A stretch of DNA of 64,000 nucleotides, from positions 25,951 to 89,950 of the forward strand of contig DYJS01000001.1 of NCBI GenBank assembly GCA_020723005.1. The letters run 5' to 3'. Each line of letters begins with the position of its first letter. The stretch's first letter is position 1. The stretch is from Candidatus Methylomirabilis sp. Lineage in GTDB: Bacteria; Patescibacteriota; DYJS01. The notes under the pieces are model-generated. The model ran no database searches. It was given only the letters and a program-made list of their open reading frames with translations, and was not told where the DNA came from. Positions 312 to 50,315 of the stretch are shown piece by piece. Both the position numbers and the translations under genes were made by a program.

Positions 312-620
312 ATGTTTAATATAAAGAAAGTTTTTTCAGCAACAAAACCACCAGCAGTTAATCTAAATAAAAATGGTGATTTTAATTGGACAAATATCTG
401 GACAGAGCTTCCTGATATGATTTCAGTTGTTTTGACGGTAGTTGGTGTTTTAGTTGTGATTTATTTGATTATGGGTGGTTTTAGATATATTACTGCTGGA
501 GGAGACGAAAAGAAAGTTGAGGTAGCGAAGAAAACAATTACAAATGCTATTATAGGTTTGATTGTTATTTTATTGGCATTTGCAATTATGCAAGGTGTAA
601 ATTCGTTAATTCAAGGTTAA
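312..620 (+). CDS. VirB2/TrbC-like pilin-family small membrane protein (paralog 2 of 3)
   Basis: Shares VLVVIYLIxGGFxYITAGGDEKKVEVAKK...IIGLIVILLAF with its neighbours. It has two TM helices and is a small tandem paralog. Confidence 0.55.
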   Translation: MFNIKKVFSATKPPAVNLNKNGDFNWTNIWTELPDMISVVLTVVGVLVVIYLIMGGFRYITAGGDEKKVEVAKKTITNAIIGLIVILLAFAIMQGVNSLIQG

Positions 621-624
621 TTGA

Positions 625-1200
625 ATGATAAAATTATTTGCAAAGCAGGTAAATGACAATAGTTTTGGATTAGGTAGTGTATTTTCTATTAAAGATATAT
701 GGCAATCTATTCCAGATTTCATATCAACAGCTATAATGTTGGCTGGAGTTTTGGTTGTAATATATTTGATAATTGCAGGTTTTCAATATTTATCATCTGG
801 AGGAGATGAGAAAAAAGTTGAGATTGCAAAGAAAAATATAAATTTCAGCATAACTGGACTTGTAATAGTTTTATTTTCATATGCACTTGTTAATGGATTG
901 ATGAGCTTACTTGGAACAAGACCTATGGACAATGGAGATGATACAATTTTTGAATTAAAGGTTTCGGTTGATAACTGTCCACCACAAACAGATATTATAA
1001 GATTTTCTTTTTCTGGTGGGTCTGGAACAAAGTATAGTCAATGTATTTTCTCTTCTAGTAAAGGATCAACAGGTTGGAAAGATTGTCTAGGTGGTTCTTT
1101 TGACACAGAGGGATTAATTGCAGATGATGGAACAGATGAATTTTATATTAAAGCATCTGATTCAGCAGGTCAAACTGCTCTTGATAGTTGTGTTTGGTAA
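625..1200 (+). CDS. VirB2/TrbC-like pilin-family protein with a Cys-containing C-terminal extension (paralog 3 of 3)
   Basis: Same N-terminal two-helix core (VLVVIYLIIAGFQYLSSGGDEKKVEIAKK), followed by about 100 extra residues with 4 Cys (DNCPPQ...C...C...C). Confidence 0.55.
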   Translation: MIKLFAKQVNDNSFGLGSVFSIKDIWQSIPDFISTAIMLAGVLVVIYLIIAGFQYLSSGGDEKKVEIAKKNINFSITGLVIVLFSYALVNGLMSLLGTRPMDNGDDTIFELKVSVDNCPPQTDIIRFSFSGGSGTKYSQCIFSSSKGSTGWKDCLGGSFDTEGLIADDGTDEFYIKASDSAGQTALDSCVW

Positions 1201-9054: not shown

Positions 9055-11505
9055 TTATTTCAGCTTTTCTAAGATTTTTTCAATTTCTTCGTTCTCTAAA
9101 GTTCTTGTTTCAGATGAAAATTCAAACCTTGCTGTGAATTTTTTAAATTCATTTGTTTCAAAAAGATCAATAATTTCAAAAGAGATTAAAATTTTGTCGT
9201 TATTTTGAGCTTTCTCCTTATTATCTTGAACCTGTTGAAGTGTTTTTAATTTTTCTTCAATCTCATTTTTTAAATCTAAAGTTTTTTTCTCTTTTGAAAA
9301 TTCATAATTTATATCACGAACTATGCTTGGAAATTTTGGTGCATCTTTAAATTTTTTTTCTAAGGATTTTTTTGTGTTTTCTAAATCGCTTAAAGAGATT
9401 TCACAGATAATCGCATTTGCACCTTTGATTTTTATGTCTGAGTCTGAGATAAACCATTTTGAAAATTTTGTTTTGAGGTTAGAAATTTCTACTCCAAAAT
9501 GAATAGAGATTGTTTTTATCACACCAGAAATTTTTCTCATAATCATTTGTGGTGAAGATTTTGAAAGAATTGCAAATGCGAAAGATTTCCATTCTTTATT
9601 TTCTTGCATAGGTAAATTTTTTGGATTTTCTGGTTTTTCAAAAACTTTTCCAATTTCAAATATCATTTGTTCATCATAAAATCCACGATTTTTCTCAAGA
9701 ACATCAAGTAAATTTACAGAGATTTGTGGGCGAAGGAAGCTCATTTTTTTAGAAGGAGCATTTATAATTTCTAAAAGTTTTGATTTATCTAAATTTAAGA
9801 CATCGGCAAATTTTTCGTCTATCATAAAAGAATATGTATAAATTTCAGCAAAACCCATCCCAACCATCAAATCTCGTAGTTTAAATTCCGAATCTATCCA
9901 AGTTTCTTTTTTTGAAGGTTTTGAAAAACCTAAAATTGGAGTGTTAGAAATTTTTGTGAGAGAATCCATTCTCCCAATTTCTTCAACTAAATCTTCAGCA
10001 ATTTCAAGATCAAATCTCCAAGAAGGCACTACGATGGTTAAAGAATTTTCTTCTTGAAATGGATACCTTTTTTTTTCAGAAAAATCTGTAAATTGCGAAG
10101 GTGAAAGACTTGAATCAATTTCTTCCATTTCTTGAGTTTGGGAATTTTTAATAAAAGTTTTTGAATTTGGATTTGGATCAGAAACTTCACAACCTATTTT
10201 CTTTAAACAATCAATTTGAAAATCTAGATCAATTGGATGTCCAATAATTTTTTCTGCAAAATTTTTTGGCAAAAAAATCGTCTTTTTTTCTTCATCAAAA
10301 TTTTTGTAATCAAAAAATTCTGCAGATTTTATCCCCAAATGATTTAGAATAAATTTTTGTGCAAGATCAATATGTGAAAAATCTACACCATGTTCAAATC
10401 TTTGTGCAGCTTCAGAAAGAAGATCAAATTTCCTTGAAGTTTTTCGAATTAAATTTGTTGGAAAGCTTGCAGATTCAATCAAAACCTCTGTTGTATTTTC
10501 ATCTGCTTCAGTATTCAAACCACCCATCACTCCAGCCAATCCAACTGGAACAGAATTATTCGTAACAAGCAAATCGTTTTCATTCAAAATTCTTTCGTTT
10601 CCATCGAGTGTTGTAAACTTTTCATTAATTTTTCCTGTCCGAACCCCAATCTGAATTTTTCCATTTCCAACTTTTTTAAGTTTTTGATAATCAAAAACAT
10701 GAAAAGGTTGTCCTGTTATAAGCATTGCAAAATTTGTTGCATCCACAAGCCTAGAGATTGGACGAATTCCATTACTAGCTAAAATTTGAGAAATGTAGAG
10801 ATCAGATTTTTGTTCTGAAAAAGAAAATTTTGATAAGGCAAATCTTTTTATTCGTTTATCAAATTCACCAAAAATATTTTCTTTACTTTGCAAAAGTTCA
10901 ACTTCTGGAAATTTAAAATTTACTTTCAAATTTAAAAATGCACCGATTTCTCTTGCAACTCCAATATATGAAAACATATCTGCACGGTTTGAAAGTGCTT
11001 TGTTGTCAATTTCAAGAACAAAATCGTTAAAATATGGAAAAACTTCAAGCAATTTTCCAAGATGAGTATTTTCTGGAAAAATAAAAATTCCAGAATGATC
11101 AATTCCAAGCCCAAGCTCTTTTTGTGAAAGCGAAACCCTTTCACTAATAATTCCTCGCAAATCTTTTGCTTCTACAACAAACGAAAGATGTCCAAATCCA
11201 CCCGGAATTGTTCCACCTTTTTCAACAACTGCAATTTTGTCTCTAACTTTCAAGTTTTTTGCACCTGTGACGACTTGATAATTTTTACCATCAAGTTTTT
11301 TTACTTCCAATAAAACTAATTTTTCTGCATTTGGATGATTCTCAATTTTTTCAACTTGAGCAATTTCAATGTCTTTATATTTTTCTCCAAAATTTACAAC
11401 TGGATCATTTTCTGCAATATTTAAAGTCATAAATTTTGCCAAATCATAAGGATTTGGTAGTTTTTCATCAAAAAATGTTTGAAGTAAATTGTAGGAAAGT
11501 TTCAA
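9055..11505 (-). CDS. pheT: Phenylalanine--tRNA ligase beta subunit
   Basis: 816 aa. The N-terminus MKLSYNLLQTFFDEKLP...HPNAEKLVLLEV carries the tRNA-binding domain. The B3/4 and B5 regions are also present. No pheS gene is adjacent. Confidence 0.9.
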   Translation of the reverse strand: MKLSYNLLQTFFDEKLPNPYDLAKFMTLNIAENDPVVNFGEKYKDIEIAQVEKIENHPNAEKLVLLEVKKLDGKNYQVVTGAKNLKVRDKIAVVEKGGTIPGGFGHLSFVVEAKDLRGIISERVSLSQKELGLGIDHSGIFIFPENTHLGKLLEVFPYFNDFVLEIDNKALSNRADMFSYIGVAREIGAFLNLKVNFKFPEVELLQSKENIFGEFDKRIKRFALSKFSFSEQKSDLYISQILASNGIRPISRLVDATNFAMLITGQPFHVFDYQKLKKVGNGKIQIGVRTGKINEKFTTLDGNERILNENDLLVTNNSVPVGLAGVMGGLNTEADENTTEVLIESASFPTNLIRKTSRKFDLLSEAAQRFEHGVDFSHIDLAQKFILNHLGIKSAEFFDYKNFDEEKKTIFLPKNFAEKIIGHPIDLDFQIDCLKKIGCEVSDPNPNSKTFIKNSQTQEMEEIDSSLSPSQFTDFSEKKRYPFQEENSLTIVVPSWRFDLEIAEDLVEEIGRMDSLTKISNTPILGFSKPSKKETWIDSEFKLRDLMVGMGFAEIYTYSFMIDEKFADVLNLDKSKLLEIINAPSKKMSFLRPQISVNLLDVLEKNRGFYDEQMIFEIGKVFEKPENPKNLPMQENKEWKSFAFAILSKSSPQMIMRKISGVIKTISIHFGVEISNLKTKFSKWFISDSDIKIKGANAIICEISLSDLENTKKSLEKKFKDAPKFPSIVRDINYEFSKEKKTLDLKNEIEEKLKTLQQVQDNKEKAQNNDKILISFEIIDLFETNEFKKFTARFEFSSETRTLENEEIEKILEKLK

Positions 11506-14797: not shown

Positions 14798-15229
14798 TTA
14801 TTTATTGTCAGATTTAGATTTTTTAAACTCTATTTTTGAAAGTTCTACTTTAAATTCTATTTTATCTTGGAGTGCAATATGAAATAAATTATATGACAGG
14901 TATGGATATAGTGTCATTATCGCAATAAACAAAGGCACTGTTTCTGGATTTTTCGTCAATTCCGTTATTTTATGAATTGATAATGCTGGTAGCATAGCAA
15001 TTAGTATACCAAGCATAGATGCAAAAGCTCTATTAAACAAACCAATTTCAATAATAATTTTTCCTGTTATCCCCGTGATTTTTTCTGGTTGAGTTGCTTC
15101 TATCTGACCATCATTTGGAATGCTTTCTATTGTTCCCATTGGAGCACCACACATCTTACAAATTTCATGAGGTTCTGTATATTTTGTTTTACAATATTTA
15201 CAAATAAATAAACTTGTTTCATTTGTCAT
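14798..15229 (-). CDS. Zinc-ribbon membrane protein, unknown function
   Basis: N-terminal CKYC-x9-H-x2-CKMC zinc ribbon, then two hydrophobic helices. It lies downstream of the conserved TTGACT-(TC)7-TAGAAT promoter element. Confidence 0.5.
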   Translation of the reverse strand: MTNETSLFICKYCKTKYTEPHEICKMCGAPMGTIESIPNDGQIEATQPEKITGITGKIIIEIGLFNRAFASMLGILIAMLPALSIHKITELTKNPETVPLFIAIMTLYPYLSYNLFHIALQDKIEFKVELSKIEFKKSKSDNK

Positions 15230-15282
15230 TTCTTGAAATTTAATTAAAAAATCCTTCTCAAAAATTTACTTCTTGAAGTTTG

Positions 15283-15308
15283 ATTCTAGAGAGAGAGAGA
15301 GAAGTCAA
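15283..15308 (-). promoter_or_regulatory. Promoter-like element TTGACT-(TC)7-TAGAAT on the minus strand, copy C of a recurring motif
   Basis: The reverse complement reads CTCTTGACTTCTCTCTCTCTCTCTAGAATCAAACTTCAAGAAG. It sits about 50 nt upstream of the start of the 14798..15229 gene. Confidence 0.45.
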
Positions 15309-15311
15309 GAG

Positions 15312-16631
15312 ATGTTTAAAAATTTAAAAAATTTACGATACAAACTAACAAAAAATATCAAATTAGAGAATTTAAAAAACTTTTTTATTCGAATACCAAG
15401 AGCTTTTTTTTATTCTTTGAAAGAGAATTTTCCCGGAAAAAATTCTTCTCTTGGAATTATTGGAATTACAGGAACAAAGGGGAAAACTTCTGTTGCTTTT
15501 ATTTTATATCATATTTTAAATTCAAAATTTAGAACTTCGTTAATTTCTACAATTGAAGCAAAAATTGGTTCAGAAAATGTTGATACAGGGTTTCATGTAA
15601 CAAGTCCAGATTCAAATCAGATTTATAAACTTTTAAAAAAATCTCTTGAAGCAAAATCAGAAAAGGTAGTTTTTGAAACAACTTCACACGGAATGTTTCA
15701 AAAAAGAGTAGAATTTGTTGATTTTGAAGTTGCAGTTTTTACGAACATTGCAAGAGATCATCTTGATTATCATCCAACTTTTGAACATTATTTATGGTCA
15801 AAATCTTTGCTTTTTCGTGGAAAAAAGCTCAAACTTTCTGTTTTAAATTTTGACGATAAACTTAGTTTTGAATATCTCAAAAAATGTGCAAAAGGAAAAA
15901 TTGTTTCGTATTCAATTAAAAATGAAAAAGCTGATATTTTTGGAAAGATTTTGGAAATTAGCGAAAAAGGAACAAGATTTTTAGTAAAAAGAGAGAATTT
16001 TAAACAAGAATTTTTTATGCCAGTTGTTGGAGAAGTTTATGTTTCAAATGCTTTGTCTTCCATTGCCGTTGCTCTTTTTTATGGAATGAGTTTAAAGGAG
16101 ATCTCTGAAAGTTTAAGAAATTTTACTGGAGTTTCTGGAAGAATGGAAAAAATTGATGAGGGGCAAAATTTTTCAGTTTTTGTGGATTTTGCTCATACAC
16201 CAGATTCTTTGCAAAAACTTTTAGAGGGAATTCGAAAAATTAGAAAATCTGAAAAGCAAAAAATTTTTGCAGTTTTTGGAAATGCTGGAGAAAGAGATCC
16301 TGAACGGAGAAAAATGGGTGGAGTTTCTGCAAAACTTTCTGATATAACAATTCTTACAGCAGAAGATCCAAGAAGCGAAGGGGTTGAAAAAATTATGAGC
16401 GAAGCTGAAAAATATGCAGTTGAGAATGGTGCAATTTTAAACAAAAATCTCTTTAAAATTAGCGATAGAAGAATTGCAATAAAAACTGCTTTTGAAATGG
16501 CAAAAGATGGAGACTTCGTTCTTCTTTCTGGAAAAGGTCACGAACAGAGTATGAATTTTGGAAATGGGGAAGAGTGGTGGGATGATCGAGTTGTTGCAAG
16601 AGAGGAGTTGAGAAAATTGCTAGGAAAATAA
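15312..16631 (+). CDS. murE: Mur ligase, most likely UDP-MurNAc-L-Ala-D-Glu:2,6-diaminopimelate ligase (MurE-like)
   Basis: P-loop GITGTKGKTS, DHLDYH, GKGHE and a DNPR-like LTAEDPRSEG motif. The track ORF begins with TTG at 15273 and reads through the (GA)7 tract as RERER. The ATG at 15312 is the more plausible start. Confidence 0.7.
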   Translation: MFKNLKNLRYKLTKNIKLENLKNFFIRIPRAFFYSLKENFPGKNSSLGIIGITGTKGKTSVAFILYHILNSKFRTSLISTIEAKIGSENVDTGFHVTSPDSNQIYKLLKKSLEAKSEKVVFETTSHGMFQKRVEFVDFEVAVFTNIARDHLDYHPTFEHYLWSKSLLFRGKKLKLSVLNFDDKLSFEYLKKCAKGKIVSYSIKNEKADIFGKILEISEKGTRFLVKRENFKQEFFMPVVGEVYVSNALSSIAVALFYGMSLKEISESLRNFTGVSGRMEKIDEGQNFSVFVDFAHTPDSLQKLLEGIRKIRKSEKQKIFAVFGNAGERDPERRKMGGVSAKLSDITILTAEDPRSEGVEKIMSEAEKYAVENGAILNKNLFKISDRRIAIKTAFEMAKDGDFVLLSGKGHEQSMNFGNGEEWWDDRVVAREELRKLLGK

Positions 16632-25197: not shown

Positions 25198-25236
25198 TTG
25201 TAATAAATTTTTTAATATTTTTTTTTATAAAAACTC

Positions 25237-25256
25237 TTGACTTCTCTCTCTAAAAT
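25237..25256 (+). promoter_or_regulatory. Promoter-like element TTGACT-(TC)4-TAAAAT, copy B of the recurring motif with a shortened repeat
   Basis: AAAACTCTTGACTTCTCTCTCTAAAATCAAATTTCAAAAAG. Only 8 nt separate the two hexamers, against 14 nt in copies A and C. Confidence 0.45.
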
Positions 25257-25401
25257 CAAATTTCAAAAAGATAATTTTTGAGAAGATTTTAGAATTAAAG
25301 AAAAATATGCTTGATCTTAATTCTTTTTTTAATGATTTAAAAGAACAAATAGTTGGAACTTTTAAAGAAAAAATGTCAGTTTTTTAGAAAAATTTCTTTG
25401 T

Positions 25402-47099: not shown

Positions 47100-48290
47100 T
47101 TATGAAATCACTCCACCACCTAAACATTCATTATTATCATAAATTGCTACAAATTGTCCCTTTGCAACTCCAGAAATCTTTTTATCAGATCTTATTAAAA
47201 ATCTCTCTTTTTTGTTTTCCAAATTTAAATTTTCATTTTCGTTAGAAATTTTTAAAATTTTTCCACTTTCAAAAGTTGGTGTATGACGAATTTTAAAATG
47301 AATTTCCTTTTCAAAATTTTTTGTTTTTTGATTTTCAATTTTTATATTTTGATTGATCCAATTAAAATCTTCTATAAAAATTTCGGAAACATATCTTTCT
47401 TCTGGATCGTATCCGTTTGCAACAAAAATTTCATTTTCAATTTCATTTTTGGAAACTACAAACCATGGACCACCAGCAAGATTTAGTCCACTTCTTTGCC
47501 CGATTGTGTGAAACCAAAACCCATTGTGTTCTCCTAAAATTTTTCCACTTTCTTTTTCAATAATTTTTCCAGATTTTTTTCCAACATATCGCTCTAAAAA
47601 TTTTTTGTAGTTTATTTTTCCCAAAAAACAGATTCCTTGACTATCTGGACGATTTGCAGAGAGGAAATTTTGTGATTTTGCAATTTCTCTGACTTCTTTT
47701 TTTTCTAAATCTCCAAGTGGAAAAAAAGATTTTGAAATTTGATCAACAGAAAGTTGGCTCAAAAAATAGGTTTGGTCTTTGATTTTATCTTTTGCTGTCA
47801 TTAAATGATAGACATTTCTTTCTTTTGGGTTTTGAACTCTTTCTTCTATAAAAAATGTATCTTTTATAAATTTATTATGCATCATATCTGAATTTTGAAT
47901 TCTTCCTTTTAGCACTTTTGCATAATGTCCTGTAGAAATTTTATCAAAATTTTTTCCAAATTTTTCATAAAATGCACCAAATTTTACTAATTTATTACAC
48001 ATCATATCTGGGTTTGGAGTTCTTCCTTTTTTTACCTCAGAAATTGTATAATTAACCACCAAATTCCAATATTCTTTTTGTAGAGAAACGATTTCAAGAT
48101 TTAATCCAAGTTTTTTGCAAACATCTTCAGCAAATTCAATATCTTCTTTCCAAGGACACTCCCCAAAACCGAGGTTACCTTCCATCCAAATTTTTATGTA
48201 AAATGGTTGAACAGAAAAACCTTGTTCTTTTTCCAGAAAAAGAGCAACTGAACTATCCACCCCACCACTCAAAAGATGTGAAATTTGCAA
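47100..48290 (-). CDS. mnmA: tRNA-specific 2-thiouridylase MnmA
   Basis: PP-loop SGGVDSSVA, RTPNPDMMCNKLVKFGAF, GHYAKV and KDQTYFLSQL. It contains an internal imperfect tandem duplication (NPDMMCNK.../NSDMMHNK...). The start codon is TTG. Confidence 0.85.
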   Translation of the reverse strand: MQISHLLSGGVDSSVALFLEKEQGFSVQPFYIKIWMEGNLGFGECPWKEDIEFAEDVCKKLGLNLEIVSLQKEYWNLVVNYTISEVKKGRTPNPDMMCNKLVKFGAFYEKFGKNFDKISTGHYAKVLKGRIQNSDMMHNKFIKDTFFIEERVQNPKERNVYHLMTAKDKIKDQTYFLSQLSVDQISKSFFPLGDLEKKEVREIAKSQNFLSANRPDSQGICFLGKINYKKFLERYVGKKSGKIIEKESGKILGEHNGFWFHTIGQRSGLNLAGGPWFVVSKNEIENEIFVANGYDPEERYVSEIFIEDFNWINQNIKIENQKTKNFEKEIHFKIRHTPTFESGKILKISNENENLNLENKKERFLIRSDKKISGVAKGQFVAIYDNNECLGGGVIS

Positions 48291-48294
48291 AACC

Positions 48295-48320
48295 TTGACT
48301 TCTCTCTCTCTCTCTAAAAT
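48295..48320 (+). promoter_or_regulatory. Promoter-like element TTGACT-(TC)7-TAAAAT, copy A of the recurring motif, upstream of the ECF sigma operon
   Basis: AAAACCTTGACTTCTCTCTCTCTCTCTAAAATAAAATCTCAAGACAA. It lies 57 nt upstream of the ATG at 48377. Confidence 0.5.
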
Positions 48321-48974: not shown

Positions 48975-49538
48975 ATGAATGCAAATTTTTTGGAAAAAGA
49001 AGTTCTGAAAAAAGCAAAAGATGGAGATGATTCAGCTTTTGAAATTATTATTCGAGAGTTTGAAAGAAAAATTGTTCGTTTTGCATATGGAATGGTTGGA
49101 AATTCTTTTGATGCAGAAGATTTGGCACAAGAGATTTTTGTAAAAGTGTATTTTGGAATCAAAAATTTTGATTTTTCTAAACCTTTTGAACCATGGCTAT
49201 ATGCAATTGCCAGAAATCATATCAGAAGTTTTTTATCATCAAAAAGGGGTGTTTTTGTTTCACTAGAAAAAATTTTGGGAACATTAGAAGAGAAAGCAAT
49301 AGAATCTGAAGATGATATTGAAAAAGTTGATCCTGAATTGAGGATTGCGATGGAGAAATTAAAAACAATTGATAGAGAGATAATTTCTCTCAAATATATC
49401 TCTGAATTGAAGCTTGAAGAGATTGCAGAAAGATTGAAATTGCCTCTTTCAACGGTTAAAACAAAACTTCGGAGAGGATTGAAAAAGCTGGAAAATGATC
49501 TAAATTTGGAAAAATTAAATTTAAGTTTTTTAGAATGA
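48975..49538 (+). CDS. ECF-type RNA polymerase sigma factor (sigma-70 regions 2 and 4)
   Basis: Region 2 (FEIIIREFERKIVRFAYGMVGNSFDAEDLAQEIFVKVY...PWLYAIARNHIRS) and region 4 HTH (EIAERLKLPLSTVKTKLRRG). Confidence 0.8.
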   Translation: MNANFLEKEVLKKAKDGDDSAFEIIIREFERKIVRFAYGMVGNSFDAEDLAQEIFVKVYFGIKNFDFSKPFEPWLYAIARNHIRSFLSSKRGVFVSLEKILGTLEEKAIESEDDIEKVDPELRIAMEKLKTIDREIISLKYISELKLEEIAERLKLPLSTVKTKLRRGLKKLENDLNLEKLNLSFLE

Positions 49539-49885
49539 ACATTGAGGAAAGATTAAAAAATTTGTCTCAACAAAAAAAAGATTCTCAAAACTTTATTTTG
49601 AATGTTTTTGAAAAAATTTACGAGGAGAAAAGAAGAAGAGAATTTTTGAAACCTTTTAAAATTTTAGCTACTTTTTCAGTAATTTTTTCACTTCTTCTTG
49701 GTTTTTTTTATAGTGTAATAAATTTTTCTGGTTCAACAAGTTTTGAGACACTCGTATATTCTTTGAATAATCAAATTTTTAATTCAGGAATTGTAGGTTC
49801 GTTGTTTGATGGAATTTTATTTTTTTCATTTTTATTAGTGCCAATTTTTTCATTTCCATTTTTAAAATTAAAAAATGCAAGATAG
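49535..49885 (+). CDS. Putative membrane anti-sigma factor
   Basis: The start overlaps the sigma stop (ATGA). It has a cytoplasmic N-terminus, then a single TM. This is the typical genetic position of an anti-sigma factor. Confidence 0.45.
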   Translation: MNIEERLKNLSQQKKDSQNFILNVFEKIYEEKRRREFLKPFKILATFSVIFSLLLGFFYSVINFSGSTSFETLVYSLNNQIFNSGIVGSLFDGILFFSFLLVPIFSFPFLKLKNAR

Positions 49886-50315
49886 TAAAAAATTATATTG
49901 GATTTTTGGAATTCTTCTCAGCATAAATTTTTTATTGGCTGGATTTTTCATTGGATCTTTTTATGAAAAATCAGTTGAAAATGAAAAAATTCAAAAATTA
50001 GAAGAGGAGAATAATTCGCTTGTAAAATTTGCAGGGAAAGAATTTTTGGATTCAGAAAGTTGGAGAAATTTACCAAATCCGCGAGAAAACTTTGCAAATA
50101 ATTTTTTGTCTGAAAGGGGTTTGGTTGGAAAAATTTTGCAAAAAAAAGATCTTTTTGGAGTTTTAAAAACAAAAGCAGGTTTAGTTAGAATCTCTTTTAA
50201 AGATAAGGATTTATTAGAAAATTTTGAGATTGGAGATAAAGTTATAGTTTTTGGGGAATTAAAAAATGAAAATTTCGGAAAAGTGATCATAGTTAACAAA
50301 ATTGAAAAGGTTTAA
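49875..50315 (+). CDS. Membrane-anchored hypothetical protein, third gene of the sigma/anti-sigma module
   Basis: An 11-nt overlap joins it to the previous gene. N-terminal TM, then a soluble domain ending ...DKVIVFGELKNENFGKVIIVNKIEKV. Confidence 0.4.
   Translation: MQDSKKLYWIFGILLSINFLLAGFFIGSFYEKSVENEKIQKLEEENNSLVKFAGKEFLDSESWRNLPNPRENFANNFLSERGLVGKILQKKDLFGVLKTKAGLVRISFKDKDLLENFEIGDKVIVFGELKNENFGKVIIVNKIEKV

Follow-up and report, generated by a model that had tools for sequence, protein, structure and literature searches.

The 64-kb stretch of contig DYJS01000001.1 analysed here (hereafter the window; 27% GC), from a low-GC lineage of the Patescibacteria (Candidate Phyla Radiation, CPR), carries copies of a recurring element that, judged by hexamer consensus, is best read as a multi-copy promoter-plus-leader cassette of the sigma-70 type. 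The copies form a repeat family with a fixed position and orientation relative to genes, conserved hexamers and a spacer of variable length, with length polymorphism at two loci. We consider it probable that the (TC)n tract filling the spacer is hypermutable and renders the cassette phase-variable through a simple sequence repeat (SSR). Five copies were located within ~85 kb of contig, A, B and C inside the window and D and E on the same contig, 0.9 and 3.4 kb past the window end:

15303..15308, minus strand: copy C, -35-like hexamer TTGACT, a 5/6 match to TTGACA.
15289..15302, minus strand: copy C, spacer (TC)7 of 14 nt; (TC)8 of 16 nt in the Joint Genome Institute (JGI) assembly, which stems from the same population.
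15283..15288, minus strand: copy C, -10-like hexamer TAGAAT, a 5/6 match to TATAAT.
25237..25256, plus strand: copy B, core TTGACT-(TC)4-TAAAAT with an 8-nt spacer, identical in the Logan contig L037.
48295..48320, plus strand: copy A, core TTGACT-(TC)7-TAAAAT with a 14-nt spacer, identical across the window, the NCBI assembly and the JGI assembly.
L015 10937-10958, equivalent to about 64051 and thus outside the window, plus strand: copy D, TTGACT-(TC)5-TAAAAT with a 10-nt spacer.
L015 14254-14229, equivalent to about 67368 and likewise outside the window, minus strand: copy E, TTGACA-AA(TC)6-TAGAAT with a 14-nt spacer (NCBI).

Copy C reads TTGACT-TCTCTCTCTCTCTC-TAGAAT on the minus strand (15283-15308), TCTCTCTCTCTCTC being (TC)7, with CTC before and CAAACTTCAAGAAG after it. 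Across the five copies the -35-like hexamer is TTGACT or TTGACA and the -10-like hexamer TAGAAT or TAAAAT. The complete element comprises ~95 nt, including a few bases 5' of TTGACT and a leader of ~55 nt, and its similarity ends at the downstream ATG; over ~80 columns up to the start codon the five copies are 64-87% similar. Each of the five copies is directed at a start codon located 62-82 nt downstream of its first hexamer. This constant orientation and distance bears out the recurring promoter/leader element that a preliminary description had proposed, and is not the pattern of a dispersed repeat with inconsistent positions relative to genes, which that description had named as the alternative outcome.

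The near-identical elements described around 48290 and 25230 were recovered together with copy C by three separate searches. Within the window, exactly three occurrences of the 15-mer CTTGACTTCTCTCTC were counted (15295-15309, minus strand; 25236-25250, plus strand; 48294-48308, plus strand), compared with 0.10 expected from shuffles, and the gapped pattern TTGACTTC..TCTARAAT yielded three window matches against 0.01 expected. An nhmmer profile built from copies A-C retrieved those three alone, with E values of 3e-25, 1e-20 and 3e-18, the next match having E=0.015. Outside long open reading frames (ORFs), TTGACN-N8-22-TANAAT was found at these elements only, in ~110 kb of this lineage and two relatives. 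Two Logan contigs stop inside or right after copies, L017 (SRR1559028_278008) at the TC tract of copy D and L037 (SRR1559028_29301) at the -10 box of copy B, so that de Bruijn graph assemblies become fragmented by the repeat family. An exact and gapped scan for the element in the genome contig collection gave 0 matches, and the metagenome contig scan gave 9, all attributable to chance and none with a TC tract, such that the exact element appears confined to this species-level lineage in the scanned collections.

The most informative feature of the element is its variable tract length. The spacers of copies A to E measure 14, 8, 14, 10 and 14 nt, respectively, between conserved hexamers and flanks; the 14-nt spacer noted earlier as common to copies C and A is confirmed for these two, and the 8 nt of copy B had gone unmentioned. 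We compared the window with a 126.7-kb contig of the JGI metagenome 3300000227 and a 118-kb contig of the NCBI metagenome-assembled genome (MAG) GCA_973415815.1, the assemblies being ~99.9% identical overall. In the JGI assembly (L001/L036) copy C has a 16-nt spacer, against 14 nt in both the window and the NCBI assembly (L035); for copy E the lengths are likewise 16 nt (JGI) and 14 nt (NCBI), and the tracts of copies A and D are invariant between assemblies. The TC tract had been taken as a fixed spacer, a view that does not hold, as its length varies between copies and between assemblies.

The indel comparison spanned 31.5 kb and gave eight indels, short repeats or homopolymer runs accounting for nearly all of them. 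The ~50 nt of TC tract contained two of the eight, against 0.01 expected from the background density (P ~5e-5). The tracts of A and C are the only dinucleotide repeats of at least 5 units in the window, and the hypermutability threshold of ~5 dinucleotide units is reached by A and C with (TC)7, E with (TC)6 and D with (TC)5, copy B with (TC)4 lying below it. Elsewhere on the compared contigs, an (ATG)n trinucleotide repeat at ~63007 (L015 9893 / L016 9891) shows a one-unit difference between the NCBI and JGI assemblies, and the remaining differences are mostly homopolymer lengths plus a small cluster of single-nucleotide polymorphisms at L015 1581-1830.

In the reading that we favour, the (TC)n repeat would be a slippage hot spot between the -35 and -10 boxes. 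Gain or loss of a TC unit would change the spacing and the relative facing of the boxes in 2-bp steps, and this change would switch or grade transcription in a stochastic and heritable manner. We infer that the hexamers would form a working promoter, that particular tract lengths would be ON and that switching would be frequent and reversible. The genes that such a promoter would drive are the following:

14798..15229, minus strand: copy C target, an ORFan of 143 aa with a zinc knuckle pair (CxxC-x11-CxxC) at its N-terminus and a hydrophobic membrane stretch at about residues 58-88.
Up to 25767, plus strand: copy B target, an ORF split at the T6 run 25380-25385; with T7 it would be a ~150-aa ORF with one membrane helix.
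Up to 48826, plus strand: copy A target, a 149-aa ORFan.
L015 11014-11485: copy D target, a gene broken into three frames by two shifts.
A7 run at about L015 14177-14183, minus strand: copy E target, where the run directly follows the TTG start and breaks a ~110-codon frame.

The coding sequences behind the five copies are mutually unrelated ORFans, none with a Pfam family above threshold. Frameshifts at homopolymer runs are found behind B, D and E, with D and E sequences the same in both assemblies. They may mark the genes as pseudogenes, may add a second layer of phase variation at the level of translation, or may stem from sequencing errors common to the assemblies.

Two characterised systems bring the proposed mechanism closest. 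For the hifA/hifB fimbrial promoter of H. influenzae, PMC2651432, which cites van Ham (1993), describes a (TA)9-11 tract between the two genes and phase variation through an SSR spacer. As in the CPR element, the -35 and -10 boxes flank a dinucleotide repeat, which changes in 2-bp steps and is placed between divergent genes. For these hif promoters, spacings of 14, 16 and 18 bp were reportedly off, maximal and reduced, respectively (van Ham, 1993), and the 14- and 16-bp spacings match the 14- and 16-nt alleles seen here. The systems differ in that the repeat is TA in hif and TC here, that the hif repeat occupies one locus of a pathogen and the present one at least 5 dispersed copies in an environmental CPR bacterium, and that the divergent partners here are housekeeping genes whose promoters do not mirror the element; moreover, switching here is predicted. 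In Neisseria, the porA, fetA and opc promoters contain homopolymeric spacer tracts, which in fetA and porA are poly-C and poly-G (PMC5320596). They share with the CPR element transcriptional phase variation via the spacing and facing of the -10 and -35 boxes, which for the CPR element is the proposed mode, and a tract length that differs among strains; unlike it, they are homopolymers with 1-bp steps at single loci that encode characterised outer-membrane proteins. In the hif and Neisseria systems, the level of transcription depends on how the two boxes are spaced and face each other. By analogy, we would predict that 16-nt alleles are active, 14-nt alleles weak or off, and the 8- and 10-nt alleles of B and D dead. 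Dead alleles at B and D would fit with the broken reading frames downstream of these two copies.

Further parallels come from the lipoprotein genes of Mycoplasma, where M. hyorhinis vlp promoters have a poly(A) spacer tract and M. mycoides Vmm a (TA)n tract. Like the CPR lineage, these are small AT-rich host-dependent genomes with a conserved promoter and 5' region containing an SSR ahead of divergent coding sequences, and their copies switch independently to give combinatorial variation. In Mycoplasma the genes encode lipoproteins that are paralogous and whose signal peptides are conserved, whereas here the products are ORFans unrelated to one another and conservation does not extend past the start codon. 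For vlhA of M. gallisepticum the repeat is (GAA)n (PMC6258824) and, unlike the TC tract, lies upstream of the -35 box and not in the spacer. The contingency genes oipA, sabA and hopZ of Helicobacter pylori have CT repeats (PMC10564699), and thus the same CT/TC dinucleotide as slippery unit, but in the 5' coding region and acting through translational frameshifting, in contrast to the promoter spacer position here.

We also searched for related promoters in other genomes. Around murE, the gene divergent from copy C, synteny is absent in the relatives whose MurE is 77% and 63% identical. Only one of them has a similar promoter, at a different gene: in the relative with 63% MurE identity (L012), 10664-10693 on the plus strand reads CTTGACA-ATCCCCCCTCTCTC-TAGAAT, where the 14-nt pyrimidine spacer ATCCCCCCTCTCTC consists of a C6 run plus TC repeats. 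The gene behind this promoter encodes an ORFan of 101 aa; on the other side, a large membrane-protein gene starting at 10661 runs divergently. A relaxed genome scan, the one that also gave the gut loci described below, found two Gracilibacteria MAGs (L023 2045, plus strand; L027 4126, minus strand) with homologous promoters CTTGACT-N14/N16-...CTCTCTCTAAAATCA followed by the common sequence AATTCTGATAT; the spacer is 14 nt in one species and 16 nt in the other, and a small membrane protein is encoded behind the L023 promoter.

The relaxed genome scan retrieved eight loci in seven Erysipelotrichaceae/Bacilli/Firmicutes gut MAGs (L021, L025, L026, L028, L029, L030, L033, L034), with the arrangement GCACTC-N10-RAGTGC-TTGACT-(CT)nC-TA(G/A)AAT and spacers of 15, 17 or 19 nt. 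They are mostly upstream of lipoprotein or secreted-protein genes, one of them before a protein with an N-terminal zinc ribbon. Judging by sequence, these promoters resemble a phase-variable family built on CT repeats, as yet undescribed, in which a palindromic operator adjoins the promoter, and our literature search found no description of TTGACT-(CT)n-TAGAAT promoters in gut MAGs. Their hexamers and repeat unit are identical to those of the CPR element, and their spacer length likewise differs among loci. In contrast to the CPR element, they belong to an unrelated phylum, have spacers centred on the canonical 17 nt and a palindrome abutting the -35 box, and do not share the CPR leader; because of the latter, we regard the likeness as convergence and not homology.

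Several observations weigh against a phase-variable switch. It is by consensus only that the hexamers resemble a promoter. Most copies have a 14-nt spacer and none has the canonical 17 nt; sigma-70 promoters normally work with spacers of 15-20 nt, 14 nt being shorter, so either most copies are off or the lineage tolerates short spacers. Counts of TTGnnn-Nx-TAnnnT showed no peak in the AT-rich DNA of this genome that would reveal the spacing preference of its ordinary promoters. Copy A, upstream of a gene cluster for an extracytoplasmic function (ECF) sigma factor, has 14 nt in all three assemblies. There is a single alternative allele (+1 unit), confined to the JGI assembly, which also differs at homopolymers, and this allele may be an assembly artefact or a fixed strain difference. 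The products are ORFans, with membrane helices predicted for those of C, B and D and none for those of A and E, so that a role at the surface or in host interaction is no more than a possibility. A switch alone, moreover, leaves the conserved leader unexplained.

The dominance of 14 nt, the lack of a 17-nt copy and the invariant copy A leave room for a constitutive promoter, an alternative that we consider unlikely although it deserves serious weight. Under it, duplication or gene conversion would have spread a strong consensus cassette whose slippery spacer is neutral, the RNA polymerase of the lineage would work with pyrimidine spacers of ~14-16 nt, and length changes would be noise or, in B and D, decay. 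Consistent with this alternative, a 14-nt spacer recurs in A, C, E and the relative L012, copy A does not vary among three assemblies, and the two homologous promoters of Gracilibacteria have 14 and 16 nt; the shortest tracts (B, D) precede frameshifted genes, which resembles decay. Yet a perfect repeat of 7-8 units is costly to keep unselected in a window without any other such repeat, and 2/5 loci already differ between 99.9%-identical assemblies. The hexamer-repeat-hexamer design, in addition, arose independently in Erysipelotrichaceae/Bacilli MAGs, mostly at surface-protein genes.

A second alternative involves the ECF sigma factor encoded downstream of copy A:

48975-49538, plus strand: ECF sigma factor.
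49535-49885, plus strand: 116-aa membrane protein, its start overlapping the sigma stop codon.
49875-50315, plus strand: 146-aa membrane protein with a sub-threshold OB-fold (tRNA_anti-codon) Pfam match.

Copy A had been described as heading an ECF sigma operon. It does lie upstream of the cluster, but directly 5' of the 149-aa ORFan, and the sigma gene comes next, after an AT-rich gap of 148 nt. Because no terminator was detected in this gap, the cluster 48975..50315 may be co-transcribed from copy A. The 116-aa protein is a likely anti-sigma factor, and a better candidate than the 143-aa protein behind copy C, because its start overlaps the sigma stop codon.

Were the element recognised by this sigma factor, which would then autoregulate via copy A and co-induce the genes behind B to E, one would expect both the copy upstream of a cluster holding an ECF sigma and a likely anti-sigma, and near-identical promoters before unrelated small membrane proteins, as in an ECF regulon. 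We nevertheless find this scenario improbable. ECF promoters typically have an AAC-containing -35 and a CGT-type -10, and TTGACT and TAGAAT are housekeeping-type hexamers; judged by these motifs, dependence of the promoter on the ECF sigma is unlikely. ECF sigmas are intolerant of spacer change, yet the spacer here spans 8 to 16 nt, and the sigma gene is second in order, behind the 148-nt gap. The same architecture, furthermore, exists in Erysipelotrichaceae/Bacilli MAGs with canonical 17-nt spacing. Relatives of the sigma factor reached at most 35% identity, and the two homologue contigs that were retrieved (one at 64% GC) have differing gene contexts and no TC-repeat promoters.

The contig at 64% GC, from an unrelated organism (L040 10001-11586), encodes an ECF sigma of 34% identity; a zf-HC2 anti-sigma and then a double-zinc-ribbon (DZR) membrane protein come next. 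A link between zinc-ribbon proteins and ECF operons was considered on this basis and rejected, since the topology of the L040 DZR protein is opposite to that of the 143-aa protein and the two share no sequence similarity.

The -10-like box of copy C ends 53 nt upstream of the ATG at 15229 of the 143-aa gene, in line with the distance of about 50 nt given earlier. The encoded protein is the sole member of its cluster among 5.8e9 proteins; a word search found no homologues, and full HMMER searching against 1.8e9 representatives brought up a single weak relative over the full length, at 31% identity. Its Pfam matches at E up to 5 are DZR_2 (E 0.016) and DZR (E 0.094), both sub-threshold, with no match to zf-HC2 or another anti-sigma family and no HxxxCxxC motif. 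The anti-sigma-like architecture attributed to it is thus not upheld: it has no anti-sigma domain match and its gene lies 33 kb from the only sigma gene of the window. Its motif, its Pfam matches and the absent sigma linkage accordingly do not support a zinc-associated anti-sigma factor (ZAS) of the zf-HC2 type.

Three copies of the element abut the start of a divergent gene, and copies B and D have no divergent gene:

15312..16631, plus strand: murE, 439 aa, with its ATG 3 nt past copy C.
47100..48290, minus strand: mnmA, with its TTG start 4 nt from the edge of copy A.
Start at about L015 14266: murJ, abutting copy E, the called ORF reading LILERERF through the GA tract.

The longest murE ORF, from TTG 15273, reads ...SRERERSQEM... 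through the (GA)7 tract, the plus-strand RERER that the preliminary description had noticed and taken as an argument for a start at ATG 15312. This start is indeed supported, as both the JGI and the NCBI annotation call murE at 439 aa, and the closest MurE homologue, which carries a Patescibacteria annotation, begins MIEKLKNLRYNLTKN, aligning with MFKNLKNLRYKLTKN. In the alignment of MurE starts with homologues, MIEKLKNLRYNL... stands against MFKNLKNLRYKL..., and because the gene calls and the alignment favour ATG 15312, the RERER read from TTG 15273 is an artefact of (GA)n. The TC tract thus misleads gene callers, murE and murJ ORFs being extended through it as 'RERER'. The genes mnmA, murE and murJ start within ~5 nt of the upstream edge of the element, and their 5' regions read (GA)n-(A/T)-(A/T)-(G/T)-GTCAAG(A/G)G. 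Scanning the opposite strand of the element for a promoter of murE, mnmA or murJ revealed no convincing hexamer pair on inspection by eye, the consensus scan giving only weak matches. That (GA)n might serve the divergent genes as their Shine-Dalgarno sequence was rejected, since it is poorly complementary to the canonical anti-Shine-Dalgarno.

Downstream of the core, the leaders run up to the start codons:

15230..15282, minus strand: copy C leader, ending at the ATG, with blocks TCAAGAAG..TTTTTGAGAAGGATTTT..ATTAAA common to the other copies.
From 25257, plus strand: copy B leader, up to ATG 25307.
From 48321, plus strand: copy A leader, up to ATG 48377.

The conserved blocks are TCAA..., GA(R)AAG(G)ATTTT and ATTAAAG, and all copies have the inverted repeat TA(A/G)AATC ... 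GATTTTA. A small hairpin TCAAGA..TTTTGA plus an outer TARAATC/GATTTTA pairing can be drawn, copy E having no inner hairpin. The folding energy of copy C lies within the range of shuffles, z is about -2 for A and B, and zero covarying pairs were found; an Rfam search of the window gave only a tRNA and nothing at the element. We therefore rejected a structured leader RNA, as folding is no better than for shuffles, covariation is absent and the inner hairpin is missing from copy E. Copying of the whole cassette, as in the Mycoplasma vlp genes, would account for the leader conservation without any added function.

That the element is no promoter at all and instead a dispersed repeat, be it similar to a miniature inverted-repeat transposable element (MITE), a DNA structure (H-DNA formed by the (TC)n.(GA)n tract, or a hairpin of the TARAATC/GATTTTA inverted repeat) or a purine-rich 5' signal for murE, mnmA and murJ, is very improbable: the position of 3/5 copies at 1-5 nt from a divergent essential gene start with a 5' region reading (GA)n-AAGTCAAG(A/G)G, the inverted repeat in every copy and the repeat-like breaks of Logan contigs at copies would agree with it, yet orientation and start-codon distance are constant in 5/5 copies, unlike in a MITE, terminal inverted repeats were looked for at the element ends and none were seen, the RNA folds no better than shuffles and has no covarying pair, (GA)n pairs poorly with the canonical anti-Shine-Dalgarno, and B and D are without a divergent gene.

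Apart from the element, the window contains at 312-1200 (plus strand) and in the preceding ORF three successive small genes with the T4SS_pilin Pfam family (PF18895), according to public annotation.

By its sequence, the cassette is best filed in the known class of SSR-spacer phase-variable promoters as a putative member. To our knowledge, SSR phase variation is documented almost entirely in host-adapted pathogens with small genomes, and our literature search found no report of it in CPR/Patescibacteria. These bacteria are ultra-small episymbionts with almost no classical regulators. A wider proposal, which we put forward tentatively and with some doubt, is that the (TC)n-spacer promoters act as contingency loci of CPR bacteria, randomly switching lineage-specific small membrane proteins and, via copy A, the ECF sigma/anti-sigma module as a phase-variable regulon akin to a sigma-factor 'phasevarion'; with the same device in gut MAGs, CT-repeat spacers might be a widespread undescribed class of switch outside pathogens. 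If these promoters do switch, they would offer a concrete way into the question of how episymbionts that have not been cultivated diversify their surfaces against hosts or phages, and would mark which ORFans are likely interaction determinants.

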